Below are positions 37,860 through 48,656 of a stretch of DNA of 64,000 nucleotides, piece after piece (the first letter of the stretch is position 1; each line of letters opens with the position of its first letter). Below the pieces are notes generated by a model, which searched no databases, was not told the origin of the DNA, and saw only the letters and a program-made list of their open reading frames with translations. The translations under genes were made by a program, and so were the position numbers. The stretch is from Myxococcales bacterium (GTDB taxonomy: Bacteria > Myxococcota_A > Polyangia > Nannocystales > Nannocystaceae), in the NCBI GenBank assembly GCA_020633315.1, contig JACKDV010000004.1, forward strand, positions 448,071 to 512,070, in the 5' to 3' direction.

Positions 37860-38037
37860 CGCCCGCGATCGCACGGGCCCCCGTCGATCGCGCCGGGCGC
37901 CCGCGAGGATCACCCTCCCGCCTCCGTCCTCGCCGCCTGCGCGCCGTCTTCGCCGAAGCCCGCGAGATCCCTCGATCATCGGCTCGTTCGGCCGCCGCGC
38001 CGAGCTCGCTGGCGATACGTTCCGCGCTCTCGTACCG

Positions 38038-38694
38038 TTGTCCATCCCAGTGAGCCGACCGAGCCTCTTCGCCTCTGCGAGCTTGCCCGCGGCTGCCGCC
38101 GCGGACGGCAGCGTGTGGGTGTGGCCCGCGGAGGCAGAGCCGGAGGCCCCCGATGCAACGCGGGCCGAGCCCGTCGACGAGGTGCCCTGGGACGACATGA
38201 TGCGTCGCCACGGCCGTCGCGTGGTGGTGGCCCTGGTCGCGCAGGGCGTGCCGCTCGAGCGCGCCAAGGAGCTGGCCCAGGATGCGTGGCTGCGGGTGAT
38301 CGATCGTCACCGCCGCGGCCACATCACCGACCTGCAGCTGCCGGGGCTGGTGATCGCCCAGGCCGGCTTCCTCGCCCGCGACGACATGCGTCGTCGCGAT
38401 CGACGCTCGCGGCTCGACGAGCCGCACCGCCAGGCGGCCGCCAACGACCTGAGCCTCGATCTCGAGGATCAGCTCGACGCGCGGCAGCGGCTGCGAGTGG
38501 TGCGGAGCGTGCTCGACCGCGCCTCGCCCAACGCCCAGCGGGTGTTCGGGCTGCTGTACGGCGAGCGGGCCATGAGCCCCGCCGAGGTGGCGACCGAGCT
38601 GGGCCTGTCGGTCCAGCGCGTACGACAGATCGTCTGTGAGCTCCGCAAGCGCATGCGGGCGGCAATCGCCGAGCCCGGGAGGAAGCTGCGATGA
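38038..38694 (+). CDS. ECF-type RNA polymerase sigma factor
   Basis: Region 2 (ERAKELAQDAWLRVIDRH) and region 4 (MSPAEVATELGLSVQRVRQIVCELRKRM). The start is uncertain: the track start is TTG, and the first ATG is around 38197. Confidence 0.8.
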   Translation: MSIPVSRPSLFASASLPAAAAADGSVWVWPAEAEPEAPDATRAEPVDEVPWDDMMRRHGRRVVVALVAQGVPLERAKELAQDAWLRVIDRHRRGHITDLQLPGLVIAQAGFLARDDMRRRDRRSRLDEPHRQAAANDLSLDLEDQLDARQRLRVVRSVLDRASPNAQRVFGLLYGERAMSPAEVATELGLSVQRVRQIVCELRKRMRAAIAEPGRKLR

Positions 38695-39284: not shown

Positions 39285-39550
39285 CGCCTGCTGCAGCGCC
39301 GCACCGAAGGCGGTCTGCACCGGACCCGCCGAGCCCGCCACGACCGGCGGGCAACCGAGCCATGGCTCGCACGGGGGCACTCGGGGCACGCGGGGGCACG
39401 CGGGGGAAAAAAGTAGAGCCCGTCGTGCGCGAGACCGAGGCGCATCGAGCGGCATCATGCTCCCGAGCGCCCGGGATCCCGCATTTGCTCCCACGACCGC
39501 GACGACCGAGCCCGATCGCTTGACCGCGCACACGCCCGCACCTAAAACCG

Positions 39551-42478
39551 ATGGTGCGGATTCGCAGGTTCGTTGTGAATAGAACGCTTGCCCTCGCTCT
39601 CGTCGCCGTCCTGTGGCCTCTCACCGCGGAGGCGATCGAGGCTCCCACGGGCGCCCTCGCGACCGGCCCCGGTCGCCTCGAGCTGGCCGATGGTCGCGTG
39701 CTCGTGCCCGCCGTCCCGCATCGCTGGCGCGCCAGCGCGGCCGCGCCCTCGCAGGCCCGGGCCTTCGATGCCCTGGTCGCGGAGCTCGGTCCCACCTGGG
39801 CCACCTGGGATCCCACCGGCGAGCACCCCCGCCAGATCCTCACCACCGGGCTCGAGGCTCCGGGCACGGTGGCCCACGCGGCCGAGGCCGAGCGCTTCGC
39901 TCGCGAGCTGCTCGAGCGCCACCTCGAGCTGCTCGCCCCCGGCACCAGCCCCGGCGACTTCGTGGTGATCGCCAACGAGCTGTCGGGGGGCCTGCGCAGC
40001 GTGGGCTTCGCCCAGCGCTCGGGCGGTCGCGAGGTGGTGGGCGGACAGATCGGCATGGTCTTCGCCCACGACCGCCTGGTGATGATCAACAGCCTGGCGC
40101 AGCCGCACGTGCTGGTGCCGACCACTGCCTCGCGGATCTCCGACGCCACCGCGCGCGACCGGGCCCAGCGCTGGATCACCGACGACCTGGCCGCCGCCAC
40201 CCTGCGCACCCGCCCGACCGTCGAGGGCCCGCTGGTGCTGCCAGTGGGCGACGCGAGCGGGCCTCGCTACCGCGAGGTGCTGCGCGCCGAGGTCCGCACC
40301 GAGCAGCCGCTGGGGCGCCTGTGGGTCTACCTCGACGCCGAGACCGGCGAGCCCGTGGCCCGCGAGTCGCGGATGCACTACGCCAGCGGGCAGGTCGTCT
40401 ACGACACGCCGCAGCGCAGCCCCACCCTCGGGCGCATCCTCGTGCCGGCGCCCTTCACCGAGCACGTGGTCGGCGGCTTCGCCCAGGTCAGCGATCCCTC
40501 GGGCTTCGTCACCTTCCCCGGCCCCACCACCAACGTGCAGCCCGGCCTGCACGGCCCCCTCGCGGCGGTCACCGACGAGGCGGGCCCGCTGGCGAGCTCC
40601 TCGCTGTTCCTCCCCGACGGCGGCAGCGCGACCTGGAGCGCCGCCACCAGCGAGCTCGCCGACGCGCAGCTCACCACCTACGCCCACACCCTGGCGGTCA
40701 AGAGCTACGTGCGGGCCTTCGCGTCGGACCTCGCCTGGCTCGACCAGCAGATCAGCACCACCGTCAACATCGACGACGTGTGCAACGCGATGTCGGACGG
40801 CGACTCGCTGTTCTTCCTGCGCTCGAGCCCCGCCTGCGAGAACTCGGGGCGGATGCCCGACGTCGTCTACCACGAGTTCGGCCACTCGGTTCACCATCAG
40901 TCGCTCATCCCCGGCGTGGGCCTGTTCGACGGCGCGCTCTCGGAGGGCATCTCGGACTACCTGAGCGCCACCATCCAGAACGACTCGGGCGTGGGGCGTG
41001 GCTTCTTCTACACCAGCGAGCCGCTGCGCGAGCTCGACCCCGACGGCTTCGAGTGGACCTGGCCGCAGGACAACGGCGAGGTGCACGACGCCGGCCGCAT
41101 CATCGGCGGCACGCTGTGGGACCTCCGCACCCTGCTCATCGCCAAGTACGGCCAGGCCGAGGGCGTGCGCCAGGCCGACACGCTCTACTACCAGGCCACC
41201 CGCCGCGCGGTCGACATGCCCTCGATGTACGGCGCGGCCCTCATCGCCGACGACGACGACGGCGACCTGGGCAACGGCACGCCCAACGTGTGTGAGATCA
41301 ACGCGGCCTTCGGCGCCCACGGCCTGTTCTCCAGCAGCGATCCCGGGGCCGAGCGCATCTACGCCGACGAGCTGCCCGAGGGGCTGCACGTCTACGTGGC
41401 CCTCGACCTGCCCAACTTCGAGGCCTGCCCCCTGGGGGCCTCGGTGCAGATCGAGTGGGGCCCCCGCGACGGCGACGGCACCACCCAGGTCGCCGAGATG
41501 TTCCCCATCGAGGGCGGCTTCCAGAACGTGATCCCGCCGCTGCCCTCCGGGCAGGTGATGCGCTACCGCGTGCACGTGCGCTACGACAACGGGGCCGAGC
41601 GGCAGGTGCCGGCCAACCTCGGCGATCCCTGGCTCGAGCACTGGTTCGGCGAGGTCGAGCCGATCTACTGCACCAGCTTCGCCGACGGCACCAGCGACGG
41701 CTGGAGCGCGCCCGCCCCCTGGGACGTGGACGCCCCGCTGGGCCTGGCCGGCGATCCGGCGGCCACCGCCGGGCCCGATCCCTTCGTGCTAGGCCTCGAT
41801 CTCAACGGCGACGGCTACTACCTGCCCTGGTCCACCGCCACCGCCGAGAGCCCGGAGATCACCATCCCGCGGGCCTACGAGTCGATCCGCCTGCACTACC
41901 AGCGCTGGCTCACCGTGGAGGACGGCTTCTACGACCAGGCCCACATCCTGGTCGACGGCGACGAGGCGTGGAGCAACTACGCCAGCCCCGACGACTTCAA
42001 CGGCGCCACCACCCACCACCGCGACGCCCAGTGGGCGTTCCACGACGTGGACATCACCGAGTGGGCCCTGGACGGCTCGGTGCGCCTGGGCTTCACCCTC
42101 GCCAGCGACGGCGGCCTGGAGATGGGCGGCTGGAACGTCGACGAGCTGTGCGTGGTGGGCTACTCGCCGCTGGGCGAGCCCCCGCCGCCCGGCTGCGGCG
42201 ACGGGGTGGTCGACGCGGGCGAGGAGTGCGACGACGGCAACGTGTTCGACGGCGACGGCTGCAGCTCGCAGTGCCTGATGGAGGGCACGGACGACGGCGA
42301 TCCCTCGAGCTCGGGCGACGACTCCGGGGGAGGCGGGGGCGGCAGCGGGGGCCTGGTGGACGGTCACCTCATCGATCGCGGCTGCGCGTGCCAGGCCGAG
42401 CCGGGCGGCGGCCGCGGGCGCTGGGGCCTCGCCCTGCTGCCGCTGCTGTGGGCGGCGGTGCGTCGGCGCCGACGCTGA
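39551..42478 (+). CDS. Secreted thermolysin-like (M4-type HExxH...E) zinc metalloprotease with Myxococcus cysteine-rich repeat and MYXO-CTERM
   Basis: Signal peptide, VVYHEFGHSVHH plus GALSEGISDY (third zinc ligand, as in thermolysin), CGDGVVDAGEECDDGNVFDGDGCSSQC repeat, and the ending GCACQAEPGGG...LLPLLWAAVRRRRR. Confidence 0.85.
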   Translation: MVRIRRFVVNRTLALALVAVLWPLTAEAIEAPTGALATGPGRLELADGRVLVPAVPHRWRASAAAPSQARAFDALVAELGPTWATWDPTGEHPRQILTTGLEAPGTVAHAAEAERFARELLERHLELLAPGTSPGDFVVIANELSGGLRSVGFAQRSGGREVVGGQIGMVFAHDRLVMINSLAQPHVLVPTTASRISDATARDRAQRWITDDLAAATLRTRPTVEGPLVLPVGDASGPRYREVLRAEVRTEQPLGRLWVYLDAETGEPVARESRMHYASGQVVYDTPQRSPTLGRILVPAPFTEHVVGGFAQVSDPSGFVTFPGPTTNVQPGLHGPLAAVTDEAGPLASSSLFLPDGGSATWSAATSELADAQLTTYAHTLAVKSYVRAFASDLAWLDQQISTTVNIDDVCNAMSDGDSLFFLRSSPACENSGRMPDVVYHEFGHSVHHQSLIPGVGLFDGALSEGISDYLSATIQNDSGVGRGFFYTSEPLRELDPDGFEWTWPQDNGEVHDAGRIIGGTLWDLRTLLIAKYGQAEGVRQADTLYYQATRRAVDMPSMYGAALIADDDDGDLGNGTPNVCEINAAFGAHGLFSSSDPGAERIYADELPEGLHVYVALDLPNFEACPLGASVQIEWGPRDGDGTTQVAEMFPIEGGFQNVIPPLPSGQVMRYRVHVRYDNGAERQVPANLGDPWLEHWFGEVEPIYCTSFADGTSDGWSAPAPWDVDAPLGLAGDPAATAGPDPFVLGLDLNGDGYYLPWSTATAESPEITIPRAYESIRLHYQRWLTVEDGFYDQAHILVDGDEAWSNYASPDDFNGATTHHRDAQWAFHDVDITEWALDGSVRLGFTLASDGGLEMGGWNVDELCVVGYSPLGEPPPPGCGDGVVDAGEECDDGNVFDGDGCSSQCLMEGTDDGDPSSSGDDSGGGGGGSGGLVDGHLIDRGCACQAEPGGGRGRWGLALLPLLWAAVRRRRR

Positions 42479-42512
42479 GGCCTCGATCTCCCTCCTGCGA
42501 CCAGTCGTCCCC

Positions 42513-43451
42513 ATGAAGCTCATCGGTGCATGCCAGCCTCGCTCGGGGACGATGTCCCTGCTGACCGCCATCGAGCGGATGGGCGGGCGCTGCTACCACA
42601 TGAAGGTCGTCCTGCAGAACACGCTCGAGGGGCGGGGCGACCTCTACAAGTGGTTCCGCATCGCGGCGCTCGAGCCCTTCGACGCGGAGCGCCTGCGGCT
42701 GCTCCGGGAGCTCTTCGCCGGCTACGACGCCTGCGTCGATGCCCCCGCCTGCTACGTCTACGAGGAGCTGCGCCACCTCTTCCCCGACGCGCGCGTGGCC
42801 CTCACCAAGCGCGATGCCTCGAGGTGGCTCGCGTCGGTGTGCGACACCGTCCTGCGTCCGCACCGCTTCGCCCAGCGGCCGCTGGTGCGGGTGTGCATGG
42901 CCATCGTCGACCTCGTGTGGCGGATCCCGGTCGTGGGCGGCATCGGCATCATCGGCAAGATCGCCGCCCTGCCCCCAGCCGTCGCGATGCGCCCCTACCT
43001 CGACGAGCACGGCGAGCTGCTGGATTTCTACGACGAGCACAACCACGACGAGATCCGGGCGCGCTACCACCACTACATCGAGGGCGTGGAGCGAGCCGTG
43101 CCCGCGGACCAGCTCGTCGTGCTCGAGGCGCCCTACGAGGATGCCTACCGCGAGCTCGGCCCGATCTTCGGGGTGGAGATCCCCGCCGACGAGCCCTGGC
43201 CCCACGTCAACGACCGCAAGGACGTCAACCGCAGCCTCGACATCGTGATGGCCTTGCTGGTGATCGTGCCCCTGACCTTCGTGGGCGCCCTGCTGGCGCT
43301 GGTCTACGCGCTGCTCACCGCGCCGCGGCTCGCGGTGGTGGTGGTGGCCGTCGTGGTGGCGACGATCGTCGGGGTGCGGTGGTTGCTGCGGTGGCTGCTC
43401 GCCCGGGTCGGCCAGCACGACGCGGCCAAGCGCAGCCCCGCCCCACCGTGA
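42513..43451 (+). CDS. Sulfotransferase-family protein with C-terminal TM helices
   Basis: PAPS 5'-phosphosulfate-binding-type motif CQPRSGTMS. The hydrophobic C-terminus is LLVIVPLTFVGALLALVYALL.... Confidence 0.65.
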   Translation: MKLIGACQPRSGTMSLLTAIERMGGRCYHMKVVLQNTLEGRGDLYKWFRIAALEPFDAERLRLLRELFAGYDACVDAPACYVYEELRHLFPDARVALTKRDASRWLASVCDTVLRPHRFAQRPLVRVCMAIVDLVWRIPVVGGIGIIGKIAALPPAVAMRPYLDEHGELLDFYDEHNHDEIRARYHHYIEGVERAVPADQLVVLEAPYEDAYRELGPIFGVEIPADEPWPHVNDRKDVNRSLDIVMALLVIVPLTFVGALLALVYALLTAPRLAVVVVAVVVATIVGVRWLLRWLLARVGQHDAAKRSPAPP

Positions 43452-43472
43452 GCCCGCGAGCGGGCGTCGGCG

Positions 43473-45761
43473 CTACGACCCCGGCCGCGGGTGCTCGGCG
43501 AGGAAGCGCGCCAGCACCTCCGGCACCGGGCCGGGCTTCGCGATCGCCTCGAGCAGGTCGAGCTGGTACCGCAGCGTGTCCAGCTCGCCCCGCCCCACGC
43601 CCCACCAGCGCATGCGACCCCAGCCGTAGGACAAGAGCTGGTTGTCGTCGGTGACGGCCTCCTCGAGCTGGGCGTAGCGCTCGAGCGCGTCGGGGCCGTA
43701 GCGCAGGCGCGCCGCCACCTCGGCCGGCGCGAGGTCTCGCGGCACGTCGCGCTCCAGGCCGGGGAACAGCGGGCCCTCGCCCTTGCGCCCCACGAGGATC
43801 CCGGTGCCCTCGGGATCGATCCACAGGAAGCCCTGCGGAAAGTGCTGGAGGAAGGCCCCCACGATCGCGGCGGACTCCTCGGGAGACACCAGGTGGAAGG
43901 GCAGCCACTGGGCGATCACGCCGTCGGCCGCGAGGCGCTCGTATGCGAGGGCGTAGAAGTCCGCGGAGTAGAGCGCGTTGGAGCCAGCAAAGGTGGGCGG
44001 CATGGGCTCGAGGGTGATCACGTCGTACGCGGTGTCGGTGCGCCGCAGCCACGCCCGCCCGTCCATCACCCGCGGGGTGACGCGGGGGTCGTCGAGCACG
44101 CCCTCGTTCTCGGGGAAGTGCGGGGCCATCTGCAGCACGGTGCCGCTGACGTCCACCACGTCGAGGTGGGCGGGGCCCTCCTTGCGCACCGCGTTCGCGG
44201 TCTGGCCGGTGCCGAAGCAGATCACCAGGGCCTGCCGGGGATCGGGGTGCATCAGCATGGGCAGGTGCCCCATCCACGGCATGTAGTGCGAGCCCGAAGA
44301 GGTGGTCGACGCGTAGAAGCCGTCGATCACCAGGTGCCGCCCGCCGTCGGCGTGCTCGATGACCGAGACGGTGGCATCGGGGCCCTCCTTCGAGGCGATC
44401 ACCACGTGCGCCTCGTCGAGGTTGGTCTGCACCCGCAGCGTGCCCACCTCGCTGGCCCCGGCCACCGCCACCACCACGCCGAGCCCGGCGACCACCAGGT
44501 GACGGACGCGACGGGAGCGGTCGAGCAGCAGCGCCGCGCCGGCGAGCACCGCCGCCGCCACCCAGGCCGTGCGGGCGAAGCCGATGCCGGGCAGCAGCAC
44601 CCAGGCGGCGAGCAGCGAGCCGAGGGTGGCCCCGAGGGTGTTGAGGGCGTACAGGAGCCCCACGCCCCGCGAGTCGCGGGTGGCCTCGAGCACCCAGGGC
44701 AGGCCCACCCCGATGAGCGCCATCGAGGGGCCGAGCACGGCGAGCGCGAGCCCCAGCCGTCGCGCGACCGCATGGGTGAAGGTGCTCGGCTCGGAGGCGC
44801 CGACCAGCACGAGGTCGATGCGCTCGATCACCGGCGTGGTCACCAGCACCACGAAGGCCGCGGCGACGAGGATGGTGCCGAGCGAGGGGCGAGCGCGTCG
44901 GGCCAGCCAGGGAGCCACCGCGCCGCCGAGGGCCAGGGGCAGCAGCACGCCGAAGAGCACCAGCGCGAAGCTGTCGGTGGTGGCCTGGTAGGCGGCGCGT
45001 AGCGATCGGAACCACGCAACCTCGAGCGCGAAGGTGGCGAAGCCCGTGCAGAGCACCACCGTCCGCGCCACGCGGGGTGGCAGGGGAGCGATCGGCGAGC
45101 GATCGGCGGGCTCGGCCTCGCGGCGGTCGGGCTCGGCCTCGGCCTCGGCGCGCGCCCGCACCCGTGCCCGCGCCCGCGCCCGCGAGGCCAGCCCGAGCAG
45201 GGCCGCCCCGATGAGCCCGTCGATCAGGCTGGCGATCGAGACCGTGAGGCTCACGCCGACGGCGGGGATGAAGACGAACGAGGCCGCGATGATCCCCACC
45301 GCCGCCCCGGCCACGTTGGCCGCGTACAGGCGCCCGATGGAGAGCGCGCGCTGCCTCGCCACGCCCGCGAGCACCGGGATCGTGGCGCCCATCAGCGCGG
45401 CGGGCACGGTCAGCAGCAGCAGCATGCCGGCGAGCTGGACCAGGGGAGCCAGGCCCGGCGAGCTGCGCCACACCGCGGTGTCGAGCTCGGCCAGCGCCGC
45501 GAAGCCGGGCTCGAGGGCCTGGCCGCACAGGGCGACGCCGATCTCCAGCGCGCCCCACAGCGCGAGCAGGCTCGCCGCGGGGTGTCGCGCGAGCCAGCGC
45601 CCGCCGAGCTCGGCTCCCAGCGCCAGGCCGATCGAGAACGCCACCAGGGTGAGCGCCGCCCCCTGCGACGAGATCCCGAGCGAGAGCGCCGTGTAGTGCA
45701 GCCACAGGAGCTCCCACGCCAGCCCGGCCACGCCACCGAGGGCCGCGATCGCGTAGAGCAT
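43473..45761 (-). CDS. Polytopic membrane protein fused to spermidine-synthase-like (class I SAM MTase-fold) domain
   Basis: About 8 N-terminal TM helices, then a PABS-like core (LVICFGTGQTA, DVITLEP). Paralog of 53937..56399. Confidence 0.75.
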   Translation of the reverse strand: MLYAIAALGGVAGLAWELLWLHYTALSLGISSQGAALTLVAFSIGLALGAELGGRWLARHPAASLLALWGALEIGVALCGQALEPGFAALAELDTAVWRSSPGLAPLVQLAGMLLLLTVPAALMGATIPVLAGVARQRALSIGRLYAANVAGAAVGIIAASFVFIPAVGVSLTVSIASLIDGLIGAALLGLASRARARARVRARAEAEAEPDRREAEPADRSPIAPLPPRVARTVVLCTGFATFALEVAWFRSLRAAYQATTDSFALVLFGVLLPLALGGAVAPWLARRARPSLGTILVAAAFVVLVTTPVIERIDLVLVGASEPSTFTHAVARRLGLALAVLGPSMALIGVGLPWVLEATRDSRGVGLLYALNTLGATLGSLLAAWVLLPGIGFARTAWVAAAVLAGAALLLDRSRRVRHLVVAGLGVVVAVAGASEVGTLRVQTNLDEAHVVIASKEGPDATVSVIEHADGGRHLVIDGFYASTTSSGSHYMPWMGHLPMLMHPDPRQALVICFGTGQTANAVRKEGPAHLDVVDVSGTVLQMAPHFPENEGVLDDPRVTPRVMDGRAWLRRTDTAYDVITLEPMPPTFAGSNALYSADFYALAYERLAADGVIAQWLPFHLVSPEESAAIVGAFLQHFPQGFLWIDPEGTGILVGRKGEGPLFPGLERDVPRDLAPAEVAARLRYGPDALERYAQLEEAVTDDNQLLSYGWGRMRWWGVGRGELDTLRYQLDLLEAIAKPGPVPEVLARFLAEHPRPGS

Positions 45762-45927
45762 TCCTCGACGATATCAACCCCGCGGGCCCGAGCCCCCGCC
45801 CGGCACCCTCGCCCGCAGGCACGACGGCGGGCCTCGGTCGCCGCGACCAACGACGAGGGGCCGGGGTGGCACCCGAGCCCGCGGCCACGGCCGCGGCCCG
45901 CGGGGCGCAAAGCACCGGCCAAGCGGG

Positions 45928-45953
45928 GAATTTCGCCACGAGCCGCGAAATTC
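45928..45953. promoter_or_regulatory. AT-rich perfect palindrome GAATTTCGC-N8-GCGAAATTC in divergent intergenic region
   Basis: 9-bp perfect inverted arms in a 72% GC background, 53 nt upstream of the DUF481 gene start. Confidence 0.4.
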
Positions 45954-46005
45954 GGGCTCGACCGCGGGAAGCCGGCCGGGAACACGAGTAGGATGGGCGC
46001 CGCTC

Positions 46006-46944
46006 ATGCGACGACGCCTCGCAATCGCCGCGGCCGGGCTCGCGACCTCGCTGCTCGCCAACGTGGCGGCCGCGGCCGGTCCCGCCGAGTCCGAGCCTGC
46101 TCCTCCGGCCGGAACCGCCACCAAGGACCCCGCCACCTCGGGCTCGACCGAGCTCGCCGGACAAGGCTCGTTCGGCACCGTGGCCACACAGGACGAGGAG
46201 GCGGGCGACACCCTCGAGTGGGACCTGTCCTTCGGCGCGCTGCTGAGCACCGGCAACGCGCGCAGCACCGCGATCACCGGCGGCACCAACTTCCTGCTCC
46301 GCCGCGGCCGCCACCAGATCTACGCGACCTTCCTGGGTAACTACGGCCGCGCTGCCGCGAGCGTGAACGACGAGGTCGTCGACACGGTGGGCAACCTGCA
46401 GGGCCGCGCCCGCTACGACCTGTTCGTGGGCAAGCGCTGGTCGGTGTTCGGCATGGTCACCGCGCGCCACGATCCCTTCCAGCGCCTCGACCTGCGGCTC
46501 AACGTGGACCCGGGCGCCGCGCTCTACGTGATCAACCGCGCCAAGGAGCAGCTCCGCTTCGAGGCCGGCTACGACTTCCAGCTCGACGTCCGCGATCCCG
46601 ACTCGGCGGTGGAGCTCGAGGCCGACGGCTCGCCGGTGTACGACGCCCAGGGCAACTTCATCCCGCTGGACCACACCCGCATCACCCACGCGGCACGCCT
46701 GGCCGCGGGCTACAGCAACAAGGTCAACGAGGCCGTCGGCTTCTCCACCGAGCTCGAGTACCTGCAGAGCCTGCTCCAGGCCCAGCGCTGGCGCCTCAAC
46801 TGGGTGACCAGCCTCTCCACCGTGCTCGTGCGCAAGCTGTCGCTGTCCGCCACCTTCAACCTGCGGATGGACAACGACCCCCTGCCCGGCGTCAAGCACC
46901 TGGACACCATCACCTCGGTCAACCTGGTCTATCGCTTCTTGTAG
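46006..46944 (+). CDS. DUF481-family outer-membrane beta-barrel protein
   Basis: Signal peptide and alternating amphipathic beta strands. C-terminal ...VNLVYRF-L, typical of OMP beta-barrels. Confidence 0.7.
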   Translation: MRRRLAIAAAGLATSLLANVAAAAGPAESEPAPPAGTATKDPATSGSTELAGQGSFGTVATQDEEAGDTLEWDLSFGALLSTGNARSTAITGGTNFLLRRGRHQIYATFLGNYGRAAASVNDEVVDTVGNLQGRARYDLFVGKRWSVFGMVTARHDPFQRLDLRLNVDPGAALYVINRAKEQLRFEAGYDFQLDVRDPDSAVELEADGSPVYDAQGNFIPLDHTRITHAARLAAGYSNKVNEAVGFSTELEYLQSLLQAQRWRLNWVTSLSTVLVRKLSLSATFNLRMDNDPLPGVKHLDTITSVNLVYRFL

Positions 46945-47021
46945 GCGCGACCTCACGGGCCGCCACCCGCCCGAGACGTCCCGGTCGCTCCGTCGTCACC
47001 TCGTCGCGAAAGAGTCCACCC

Positions 47022-48473
47022 GTGCTCCACCGATCGCTCCCGCCCCTGGCGGCGCTCGCCCTCGCCGCTGCCCTGCCCGCCAAGGCCACCGCCGCCCCCG
47101 TCGAGCTGGTCGAGCTCGGCGAGGACGGCGAGGTCGCCGAGGAGGAGGCTCCCGATCCCGCGCTGCAGCGCCCGTGGATCCGCCGCTACACGCCGCGCCG
47201 CGGCATGTGGGAGACGGGCTTCTTCGGCGGGGTGTGGCTGCCCTCCGACGTCATCGAGCTGCACGACCGCAACCTGCCGCCCATCCGCTATGACCTCGGG
47301 GCCGAGCTCGGCCTGCGCCTGGGCTACTACCCGCTGCGCCACCTGGGGCTCGAGGGCGAGCTGGCCATGATCCCCACGCGGGTGGAGACCGAGCAGCGGG
47401 CGTTCGTCTCCACCGCCCGCGCCGGCGCCGTGGTGCAGCTCGGCCTGTTCCGCCTGGTGCCCTTCGCGGTGATCGGCGGCGGCGTGATCGCGGTGCGCAG
47501 CGAGCCCGACGCGGCCGGCCGCAACGGCGACGAGATGCTCTACGTGGGCGGCGGCCTCAAGTACTTCGTCAACCAGCACATCGTGCTGCGCCTGGAGGGG
47601 CGCGACATGATGTCGCCCAAGGAGGGCCGCACCCCCGCCGCGCCCGCCCACAGCGGCGAGGTGCTGCTGGGCTTCTCGCTCGCCTTCGGCCCCCGCGGCG
47701 CCGACGAGCCCCCGCCGCCGCCCGACAGCGACGGCGACGGCTTCCTCGATCCCGACGACGCCTGCGTCGACGAGGCCGGCATCGCCCCCGACGGCTGCCC
47801 GGCTCGCGACGCGGACGGCGACGGCTTCCTCGACGCCGAGGATGCCTGCGCCGACGAGGCCGGCACGGCTCCCGACGGCTGCCCCGTCCCCGACAGCGAC
47901 GGCGACGGCTTCCTCGATCCCGACGACGCCTGCATCGACGAGGCGGGCGAGGAGCCCGACGGCTGCCCCATCCGCGACGAGGACGGCGACGGCCTGCTCG
48001 CGCCGCAGGACCAGTGCCCCCAGGAGCCCGAGACGGTCAACGGCTTCGACGACGACGACGGCTGCCCCGATGAGCTGCCCGAGGAGGTCAAGAAGTACAC
48101 CGGGGTGATCGAGGGCATCTTCTTCGACACCGGCCGGTCCTCCATCCGCGACGAGTCCTTCCCCACCCTCGACGCGGCGGTGAAGGTGCTCGCCGACTAC
48201 CCCTCGCTGCGGGTGGAGATCAGCGGGCACACCGACGACCGCGGCAAGCGGGACAAGAACCTGGGGCTGTCGCAGGATCGCGCCGACGCGGTCAAGCAGT
48301 ACATGGTCGACAAGGGCATCGACGCGGGGCGCATCACCACCCGCGGGGCCGGTCCCGACGAGCCGATCGGCGACAACAAGACCAAGGCGGGCCGACAGCA
48401 GAACCGACGCATCGAGTTCAAGCTGATCACCGAGCCGGCGAAGGCCACCTTCGTCGCGCCCGAGCCCTCGTGA
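47022..48473 (+). CDS. OmpA-family protein: N-terminal beta-barrel, thrombospondin type-3 (Ca-binding) repeats, C-terminal OmpA peptidoglycan-binding domain
   Basis: GTG start. It has four DSDGDGFLDPDDAC.DEAG..PDGCP repeats. The OmpA-like motif is ISGHTDDRG...NLGLSQDRADAVKQYM. Confidence 0.9.
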   Translation: MLHRSLPPLAALALAAALPAKATAAPVELVELGEDGEVAEEEAPDPALQRPWIRRYTPRRGMWETGFFGGVWLPSDVIELHDRNLPPIRYDLGAELGLRLGYYPLRHLGLEGELAMIPTRVETEQRAFVSTARAGAVVQLGLFRLVPFAVIGGGVIAVRSEPDAAGRNGDEMLYVGGGLKYFVNQHIVLRLEGRDMMSPKEGRTPAAPAHSGEVLLGFSLAFGPRGADEPPPPPDSDGDGFLDPDDACVDEAGIAPDGCPARDADGDGFLDAEDACADEAGTAPDGCPVPDSDGDGFLDPDDACIDEAGEEPDGCPIRDEDGDGLLAPQDQCPQEPETVNGFDDDDGCPDELPEEVKKYTGVIEGIFFDTGRSSIRDESFPTLDAAVKVLADYPSLRVEISGHTDDRGKRDKNLGLSQDRADAVKQYMVDKGIDAGRITTRGAGPDEPIGDNKTKAGRQQNRRIEFKLITEPAKATFVAPEPS

Positions 48474-48477
48474 TCCG

Positions 48478-48498
48478 CGGTGTGTTGAAACACCGTCG
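48478..48498 (+). terminator. Hairpin CGGTGT-GTTGAA-ACACCG 5 nt after the OmpA-family gene stop
   Basis: 6-bp perfect stem with no U-tract. Confidence 0.25.
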
Positions 48499-48656
48499 CA
48501 GCACTGCAACGCCGACGCGCTCGACCTCGGATCCACGTATCGTGCCAGCTCCTGCCCCGGGGGTGCGACCGGGCGCATGAGGCCTCGACGCGCTACAGTG
48601 TTGGCATCGAAGACGCCAAGGACAATCCAGAGCAACCACATGGCTGGCGGGCCATC

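Follow-up and report, generated by a model that had tools for sequence, protein, structure and literature searches.

CIRCE, the operator of HrcA, consists of TTAGCACTC-N9-GAGTGCTAA. The positions of UP elements and of class I activator sites are known from E. coli, and promoters of the ECF type are built from two short boxes about 16–17 bp apart. The hallmark of an ECF promoter is AAC in the −35 and CGT in the −10 element (PMC8103513), and the sites recognized by NagC and Mlc are 23-bp palindromes whose sole invariant bases are the TT/AA located ±5,6 from the centre (PMC4288165). Our search of the literature on DUF481/YdiY regulation and on myxobacterial transcription starts found nothing applicable to the locus described here.

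We analysed a 64-kb stretch of Nannocystaceae DNA (the window), in which the original prediction placed an AT-rich perfect palindrome, with the geometry of a dimeric transcription-factor operator, in a divergent promoter between a spermidine-synthase-like gene and a DUF481 outer-membrane protein gene. Direct reading confirmed the palindrome with its perfect 9-bp arms, and Pfam matches confirmed its location in non-coding DNA between the SpeE-like (Spermine_synth) and DUF481 genes. The GC-rich setting, put at about 72%, also holds, with a G+C content of 72.9% over the window. The repeat and the genes around it are as follows:

42513–43451, plus strand: sulfotransferase gene (Pfam PF17784), without a counterpart in the orthologous loci
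43473–45761, minus strand: gene for a SpeE-like membrane protein of 762 aa (Pfam PF01564, Spermine_synth)
45928–45953, no strand assigned: AT-rich inverted repeat GAATTTCGC-cacgagcc-GCGAAATTC, read directly
46006–46947, plus strand: gene for a DUF481 (YdiY-like) outer-membrane protein (Pfam PF04338, E = 6.6e-36)
47022–48476, plus strand: OmpA-like gene (Pfam PF00691, E = 3.3e-22)

The arms of the repeat occupy 45928–45936 (GAATTTCGC) and 45945–45953 (GCGAAATTC), separated by the 8-bp spacer cacgagcc at 45937–45944, and complementarity stops at the arm ends. From the end of the palindrome it is 53 bp to the DUF481 ATG, and 167 bp lie between the palindrome and the SpeE-like ATG. The pattern GAATTTCGC-N8-GCGAAATTC has this single match in the window even when 3 mismatches are allowed, and the 9-mer half-site has no further copy in the 64 kb, with one-mismatch copies at chance level. 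Perfect 9-bp inverted repeats with a spacer of ≤20 number 44 in the window, compared with 29 ± 7 in dinucleotide shuffles, and among these 44 the repeat at 45928–45953 alone has ≥5 A/T per arm. An AT-rich perfect 9-bp repeat arose in 5% of 200 shuffled windows (mean 0.065). Taken alone, the palindrome is only modestly improbable by chance. It is identical in L145, a second metagenomic strain of the same species (protein P0038: 99% identity, covering 60% of the query), which differs from the window by 3 SNPs in the ~110 bp upstream of the palindrome and by none from the palindrome to the ATG.

The DUF481 protein has 440 homologues, the nearest of which belong to Nannocystaceae, and these assign the source organism to that family of the Myxococcota. 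Relatives share the gene order sigma, anti-sigma, DUF4215, DUF481, OmpA, and the window has genes for an ECF-like sigma factor, a zf-HC2 anti-sigma factor and a large DUF4215 protein on the upstream side. An OmpA gene follows DUF481 in the orthologous loci too. A minus-strand open reading frame at 46953–48641 (562 aa) was rejected as spurious: it matches nothing in Pfam, and in tblastn it lines up with the antisense strand of the OmpA genes of relatives. The genuine gene there is the OmpA-like frame on the plus strand, so DUF481 and OmpA constitute a conserved gene pair.

For the SpeE-like gene, tblastn found no counterpart in any orthologous locus. Together with the sulfotransferase gene, it is an insertion between DUF4215 and DUF481 that is specific to the window's lineage. 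We observed that the DUF4215/DUF481 junction is an insertion hot spot (window 42479–45925; L082, L135 and L138). DUF4215 stands directly upstream of DUF481 in L001, L085 and L086, whereas the junction holds a trypsin-like gene and a 252-aa gene in L082, an Inhibitor_I42 gene in L135 and a ParE toxin/antitoxin pair in L138. Given such varied insertions, the 'divergent promoter' of the window is a recent accident of its lineage. A promoter region shared by the two divergent genes, as initially proposed, was thus not borne out, as the conserved element stays with DUF481 whatever gene is upstream. Because the module is kept under any upstream gene, DUF481 rather than the SpeE-like gene is its owner, and its retention in all loci despite their differing upstream genes implies that DUF481 needs a promoter of its own within ~100 bp.

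In the non-conserved part of the intergenic region, on the SpeE-like side, lie two 36-nt direct repeats (45802–45837 and 45868–45903) that are 78% identical and begin with GGCAC, the second being preceded by T to give TGGCAC. We considered this TGGCAC at 45868 as a sigma-54-type site and rejected it, as the GC of the would-be −12 element is shifted by one base from its register and the region is unconserved.

Other promoter-like sequences were seen in the neighbourhood and in related loci. Upstream of DUF4215, positions 39520–39548 read TTGACC-N17-TAAAAC, and TTGACC-N17-TA(A/C/G)AAC is found in 7 genomes with a conserved leader after it. The annotated DUF4215 ATG at 39551 follows this −10 box by just 2 nt, and translation therefore probably starts at an in-frame GTG, at 39575. 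The ECF-like sigma gene probably starts at GTG 38050 and is preceded by GCGATACG-N16-CGTTGT (region 38012–38052), which is conserved in L088 and in L091, a locus of the cultured Paraliomyxa miuraensis SMH-27-4 that carries the DUF481 module. This motif (GCGATAYG-N16-CGTTGT) is a probable autoregulated ECF-type promoter; since just 8 nt separate it from the start codon, the mRNA would be nearly leaderless. Paralogous DUF481 genes of other Myxococcota (L025, L116, L118, L111, L050, L021; L093, L106) are preceded by sigma-54-type promoters, TGGCCC-N5-(C/A)TGCA, so that promoter types differ between DUF481 subfamilies. Close to the DUF481 homologue in L050, L109 and L117, we also noted sequence that is antisense to the conserved AAA+ motif found in genes for sigma-54 activators.

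We compared 18 distinct DUF481 upstream regions from Nannocystaceae (protein identity 66–86%) and found that ~100 bp before DUF481 are retained across the orthologous loci. The palindrome is part of this conserved cis-regulatory stretch, which is kept before DUF481 in all 18. Its order is a left block, a right block ~20 bp on, ~30 bp that are almost unconserved, a near-invariant segment and the ATG. In the window, its parts are:

45925–45939, plus strand: left block GGGGAATTTCGCCAC (consensus GGGGAATTTCGCCCC), the best conserved part of the element
45945–45953, plus strand: right block GCGAAATTC, in orthologues usually (G)CGAAAww or, as in L088, a plain A-tract
45986–46008, plus strand: near-invariant pre-start element GAGTAGGATGGGCGCCGCTC-ATG, with at most 1 base difference in the orthologues found with the pattern
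45989–45994, plus strand: TAGGAT, invariant except for TAGCAT in L134
45993–46007, plus strand: 15-nt GC-rich near-palindrome ATGGGCGCCGCTCAT, overlapping the start codon and almost invariant in the 18 orthologues

Exact copies of GGAATTTCG occur in 8 of the 18 orthologues and of GCGAAA in 7. The left block starts 59–64 bp upstream of TAGGAT throughout. Within the right block, the 6-mer richest in A/T begins 17–22 bp past the left-block start and 40–45 bp before TAGGAT; the distances from the blocks to TAGGAT are held within ±2 bp. Positions −40 to −37 relative to TAGGAT are A/T in 89–100% of the 18 sequences, and A/T-rich peaks lie at −68, −58, (−48) and −39, a period of ~10 bp. Beyond these orthologues, AATTTCG recurs upstream of some more distant DUF481 homologues (L019, L024 and the L025 group), a weak hint of an older regulatory link. 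Among them, L024 carries GGGAATTTCGCC-N7-CGAAAG ~55 nt ahead of an ATG whose ribosome-binding site, GGAGAGGA, is clear.

The geometry of a dimeric operator, which the original prediction saw in the palindrome, is not upheld by the orthologues, in which the dyad is not conserved, the arms do not co-vary, the spacer varies and conservation is asymmetric. The palindrome itself largely fails the conservation looked for in orthologous intergenic regions, but its left half-site persists there together with a right block rich in A/T. Arms of ≥8 bp are found in only 2 of 18 sequences, the window and L002 (AATTTCGCC-N5-GGCGAAATT), and the symmetry is otherwise not kept. The best arm complementarity is 9/9 in the window, 8–9/9 in L002 and 4–6/9 in the other 16. 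On average, arms paired within a sequence are no more complementary than arms paired across sequences (5.42/9 versus 5.41/9). Likewise, 56.2% of cells pair in the 18-sequence alignment versus 55.9% after shuffling (a level at least as high as that observed came up in 244 of 500 shuffles), and covariation is absent. In the DUF481 tree, the window's sisters L082 and L085 lack the right arm and keep the left block and the A/T tract, while L002 falls in a different clade and is not sister to the window. Only 3 of 18 sequences retain ATTC, the outer part of the right arm, and the GGGG...CCCC flanks of the left block, although strongly conserved, are not mirrored on the right. The inner arms are N6–N9 apart overall, and N7–N9 apart where a TTTCGC-like arm faces an exact GCGAAA. 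The consensus inner arms, TTTCGC and GCGAAA, remain mirror images, and L134 retains TTTCGC-N8-GCGAAA.

We searched the window and 143 related loci (~1.2 Mb) for further copies, using a fuzzy left block, the exact half-site, the inner dyad, a bipartite pattern and a two-block weight matrix. The window contains no half-site, left-block, inner-dyad or bipartite copy beyond chance, and the only convincing matches in the 143 loci are the orthologous DUF481 sites. All non-orthologous matches lie in coding sequence, namely in an ECF sigma gene (L010/L011), in AAA+ activator genes and at a 3′ gene end (L031/L033). A repetitive extragenic palindrome or miniature mobile element was rejected, as the sequence is present in a single copy per locus, always upstream of DUF481.

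The near-invariant segment before the start codon can also be written GAGTAGGATGgGCGCCGCTC-ATG, or (A)ATCGCGAGTAGGATGgGCGCCGCTC-ATG with an optional first A; its exceptions are L092, which is short by 2 bases, and L134, with its TAGCAT. The hexamer TAGGAT may be read either as a −10-like element (TAnnnT) or, through AGGA, as a Shine–Dalgarno-like core 12 nt before the ATG. The near-palindrome ATGGGCGCCGCTCAT spans the end of TAGGAT/AGGA together with the A and T of the DUF481 ATG, and is the only conserved hairpin reported by RNAalifold. At its position 4, L082, L085 and L137 have A in place of G, so that the pair becomes perfect; L092 lacks both partners of this pair (ATGGCGCCGCCAT), and one pair is broken in each of L003 and L086. 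As a hairpin, ATGGGCGCCGCTCAT could occlude the start codon; alternatively, it could be the DUF481 promoter's real operator. A sigma-54 promoter in the invariant leader (GGGCGC-N5-ATGCG) was rejected: the GG/GC spacing fits, but the −12 element would include the start codon and the transcription start would fall inside the signal-peptide coding region.

We consider it probable that the two blocks form a functional, asymmetric, AT-rich element in the promoter region of the DUF481–OmpA operon, and that the symmetry is incidental. The left block (GGGGAATTTCGCC) would simply happen to face an A/T-rich right block that reads, in the window, as its reverse complement. From here on, we infer promoter function, sigma-factor type and transcription start.

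The mechanism that we rank first, albeit tentatively, is that a non-housekeeping sigma factor uses the two blocks as its −35-like and −10-like boxes. RNA polymerase carrying such a factor would read GGAATTT as the −35-like and CGAAAww as the −10-like box, and transcription would start near 45958–45962. The resulting leader of ~45–50 nt would end in the invariant segment that comprises AGGA, the small hairpin and AUG. The start-to-start spacing of the blocks, which varies by a few bp (17–22 bp), suits −35 and −10 boxes better than a rigid dimer. In the same clade, a conserved 5′ leader comes after the housekeeping-type promoter of DUF4215 (TTGACC-N17-TAnAAC). The invariant segment before the DUF481 ATG may, by analogy, be a leader with its promoter further upstream, and nothing but the two blocks is conserved on the upstream side of this leader-like segment. 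The pair of boxes at the more distant homologue L024 also favours this reading. A 45–50-nt leader with AGGA also makes more translational sense than one of 4–5 nt.

Several results count against the blocks as sigma-factor boxes. Among all consensuses tested, they match neither that of sigma-70 nor the AAC/CGT hallmark of ECF promoters, and the window and the 143 related loci hold no second instance of the bipartite motif. Scanning 45600–46200 with the sigma-70 consensus revealed no TTGACA/TATAAT-like pair 16–18 bp apart, and the clade's own TTGACC-N17-TAnAAC form is absent upstream of DUF481. In addition, the TAGCAT of L134 keeps TAnnnT but breaks AGGA, which favours the rival reading of the blocks as an upstream activating region.

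It is possible, if somewhat doubtful, that GGGGAATTTCGCC-N(7–9)-CGAAAww is a Nannocystaceae recognition sequence for an uncharacterised alternative sigma factor or activator, dedicated to DUF481–OmpA and acting together with ATGGGCGCCGCTCAT. If this is true, the operon would have two layers of control, and the traces of the left block at L019, L024 and L025 would reflect an old, family-wide regulatory link.

The rival that survives best, although we regard it as rather unlikely, makes the blocks the upstream activating region of a promoter whose −10 element is TAGGAT. Transcription would then start near 46001–46002, with a leader of only 4–5 nt. A UP-like contact for the RNA polymerase alpha subunit would be provided by the right A/T block, which would span about −54 to −48, and an activator site by the left block, with its centre near −70; the midpoint of the two, at about −60.5, would occupy a classical class I position. 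In support of this arrangement, TAG[G/C]AT is invariant in the 18 orthologues and fits TAnnnT, its sole change (L134) keeping the pattern, and the blocks lie at a constrained distance (±2 bp) from it. No conserved −35 element was located 17 bp upstream of TAGGAT, which would imply dependence on an activator, and A/T peaks every ~10 bp lie on one face of the helix. However, a leader of 4–5 nt (2–3 nt in L092) is neither leaderless nor led by a Shine–Dalgarno sequence, and would sit awkwardly with the secretion of an outer-membrane protein. A −10 element needs far fewer bases than the 25 that are invariant ahead of the ATG, the TG of an extended −10 is absent, and the positions of UP elements and class I sites are those of E. 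coli and may not apply to this host.

Less probable still is the model of the original prediction, a dimeric transcription factor bound to the inverted repeat as an operator or activator site, which we consider unlikely. This would suppose an ancestral site close to AATTTCGC-N8-GCGAAAAT that decayed unequally among lineages. The perfect dyad in the window and L002, and TTTCGC-N8-GCGAAA in L134, are consistent with such a site, as is the 9-N8-9 geometry, which is like that of long-spaced operators such as CIRCE. As exact GCGAAA is scattered over the tree in 7 of 18 orthologues, the inner arms were probably mirror images ancestrally. On the other hand, the closest relatives, L082 and L085, have lost the right arm, ATTC persists in 3 of 18 only, the GGGG...CCCC flanks are unmirrored, the spacer runs from N6 to N9 and the arms show no co-variation. 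There is also no further copy in the window or the 1.2 Mb of related loci, and no conserved gene for a one-component regulator adjoins the operon, only the ECF-like sigma/anti-sigma pair. The mirrored consensus inner arms leave some probability to a degenerate dimer site, which is not the simplest reading of these sequences.

We think it quite improbable that the palindrome arose by chance in AT-richer intergenic DNA and has no function of its own. Such a repeat does appear in ~5% of shuffled windows, and its symmetry is not conserved, but both blocks keep their position and composition in the 18 orthologues amid a neighbouring ~30 bp that is scrambled, which argues that the sequence is constrained even if the symmetry is not. 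A nucleic-acid hairpin, whether an RNA stem-loop in the leader, a terminator or a DNA cruciform, is effectively refuted by the lack of conserved pairing and highly improbable: nine perfect base pairs are possible and the RNA fold of 45920–45960 has z = −1.96, but the minimum-energy RNA fold makes no use of the palindrome arms, RNAalifold gives no structure over the palindrome with 11 or 18 orthologues, the arms pair no more than in shuffled controls, there is no T-run or terminator-like site, and an Rfam scan of 45000–47000 (E ≤ 10) returned only sub-threshold chance matches, none at the gathering score.

The two-block element would provide a defined, conserved promoter module for the DUF481–OmpA operon of marine and soil myxobacteria, for which promoter data are almost lacking, although its importance beyond this lineage is small. 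The locus also holds a lesson, in that a perfect palindrome in one genome can be the by-product of two independently constrained A/T-rich promoter blocks. Comparison of orthologues is needed before such a palindrome is named an operator.

Set against described systems, the palindrome bears a superficial likeness to the NagC/Mlc sites of ROK-family regulators, with AT-rich arms, a GC-containing centre and TTT...CGC / GCG...AAA, but its TTT/AAA lie at ±8–10 from the centre. It shares with CIRCE the 9-bp arms, a spacer of 8–9 bp and a site just upstream of a gene, and differs in its sequence, in a symmetry that orthologues do not conserve and in downstream genes that are not chaperone genes. Both NagC/Mlc-like and CIRCE-like operators were rejected on these misfits of spacing and sequence.

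ECF-type promoters offer a further comparison, sharing with the element two short boxes and a spacing tolerance of ±1–2 bp. The GGAAT of the DUF481 element resembles −35 elements of the GGAAC type, the right box often starts with CG, and the conserved cluster that contains DUF481 also encodes an ECF-like sigma/anti-sigma pair. In contrast to ECF promoters, the left box is GGAAT or GGAAA and the right box CGAA, CGGA or an A-tract, with neither AAC nor CGT, and the gap from GGAAT to CG is ~13–15 nt, shorter than usual. The adjacent sigma gene's own motif, GCGATAYG-N16-CGTTGT, is unrelated to the blocks. An ECF promoter was rejected on the missing AAC/CGT and this difference from the motif of the adjacent sigma gene.

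With sigma-70 promoters that combine a UP element and a class I site, the DUF481 element would share an A/T tract ~50 bp, and a second conserved site ~70 bp, upstream of the start deduced from TAGGAT, along with A/T peaks phased at ~10 bp; it differs in having no −35 element and an implied leader of 4–5 nt. Overall, the DUF481 element would act like a promoter recognition or upstream element, an ordinary kind of cis-regulatory feature that is real and conserved.
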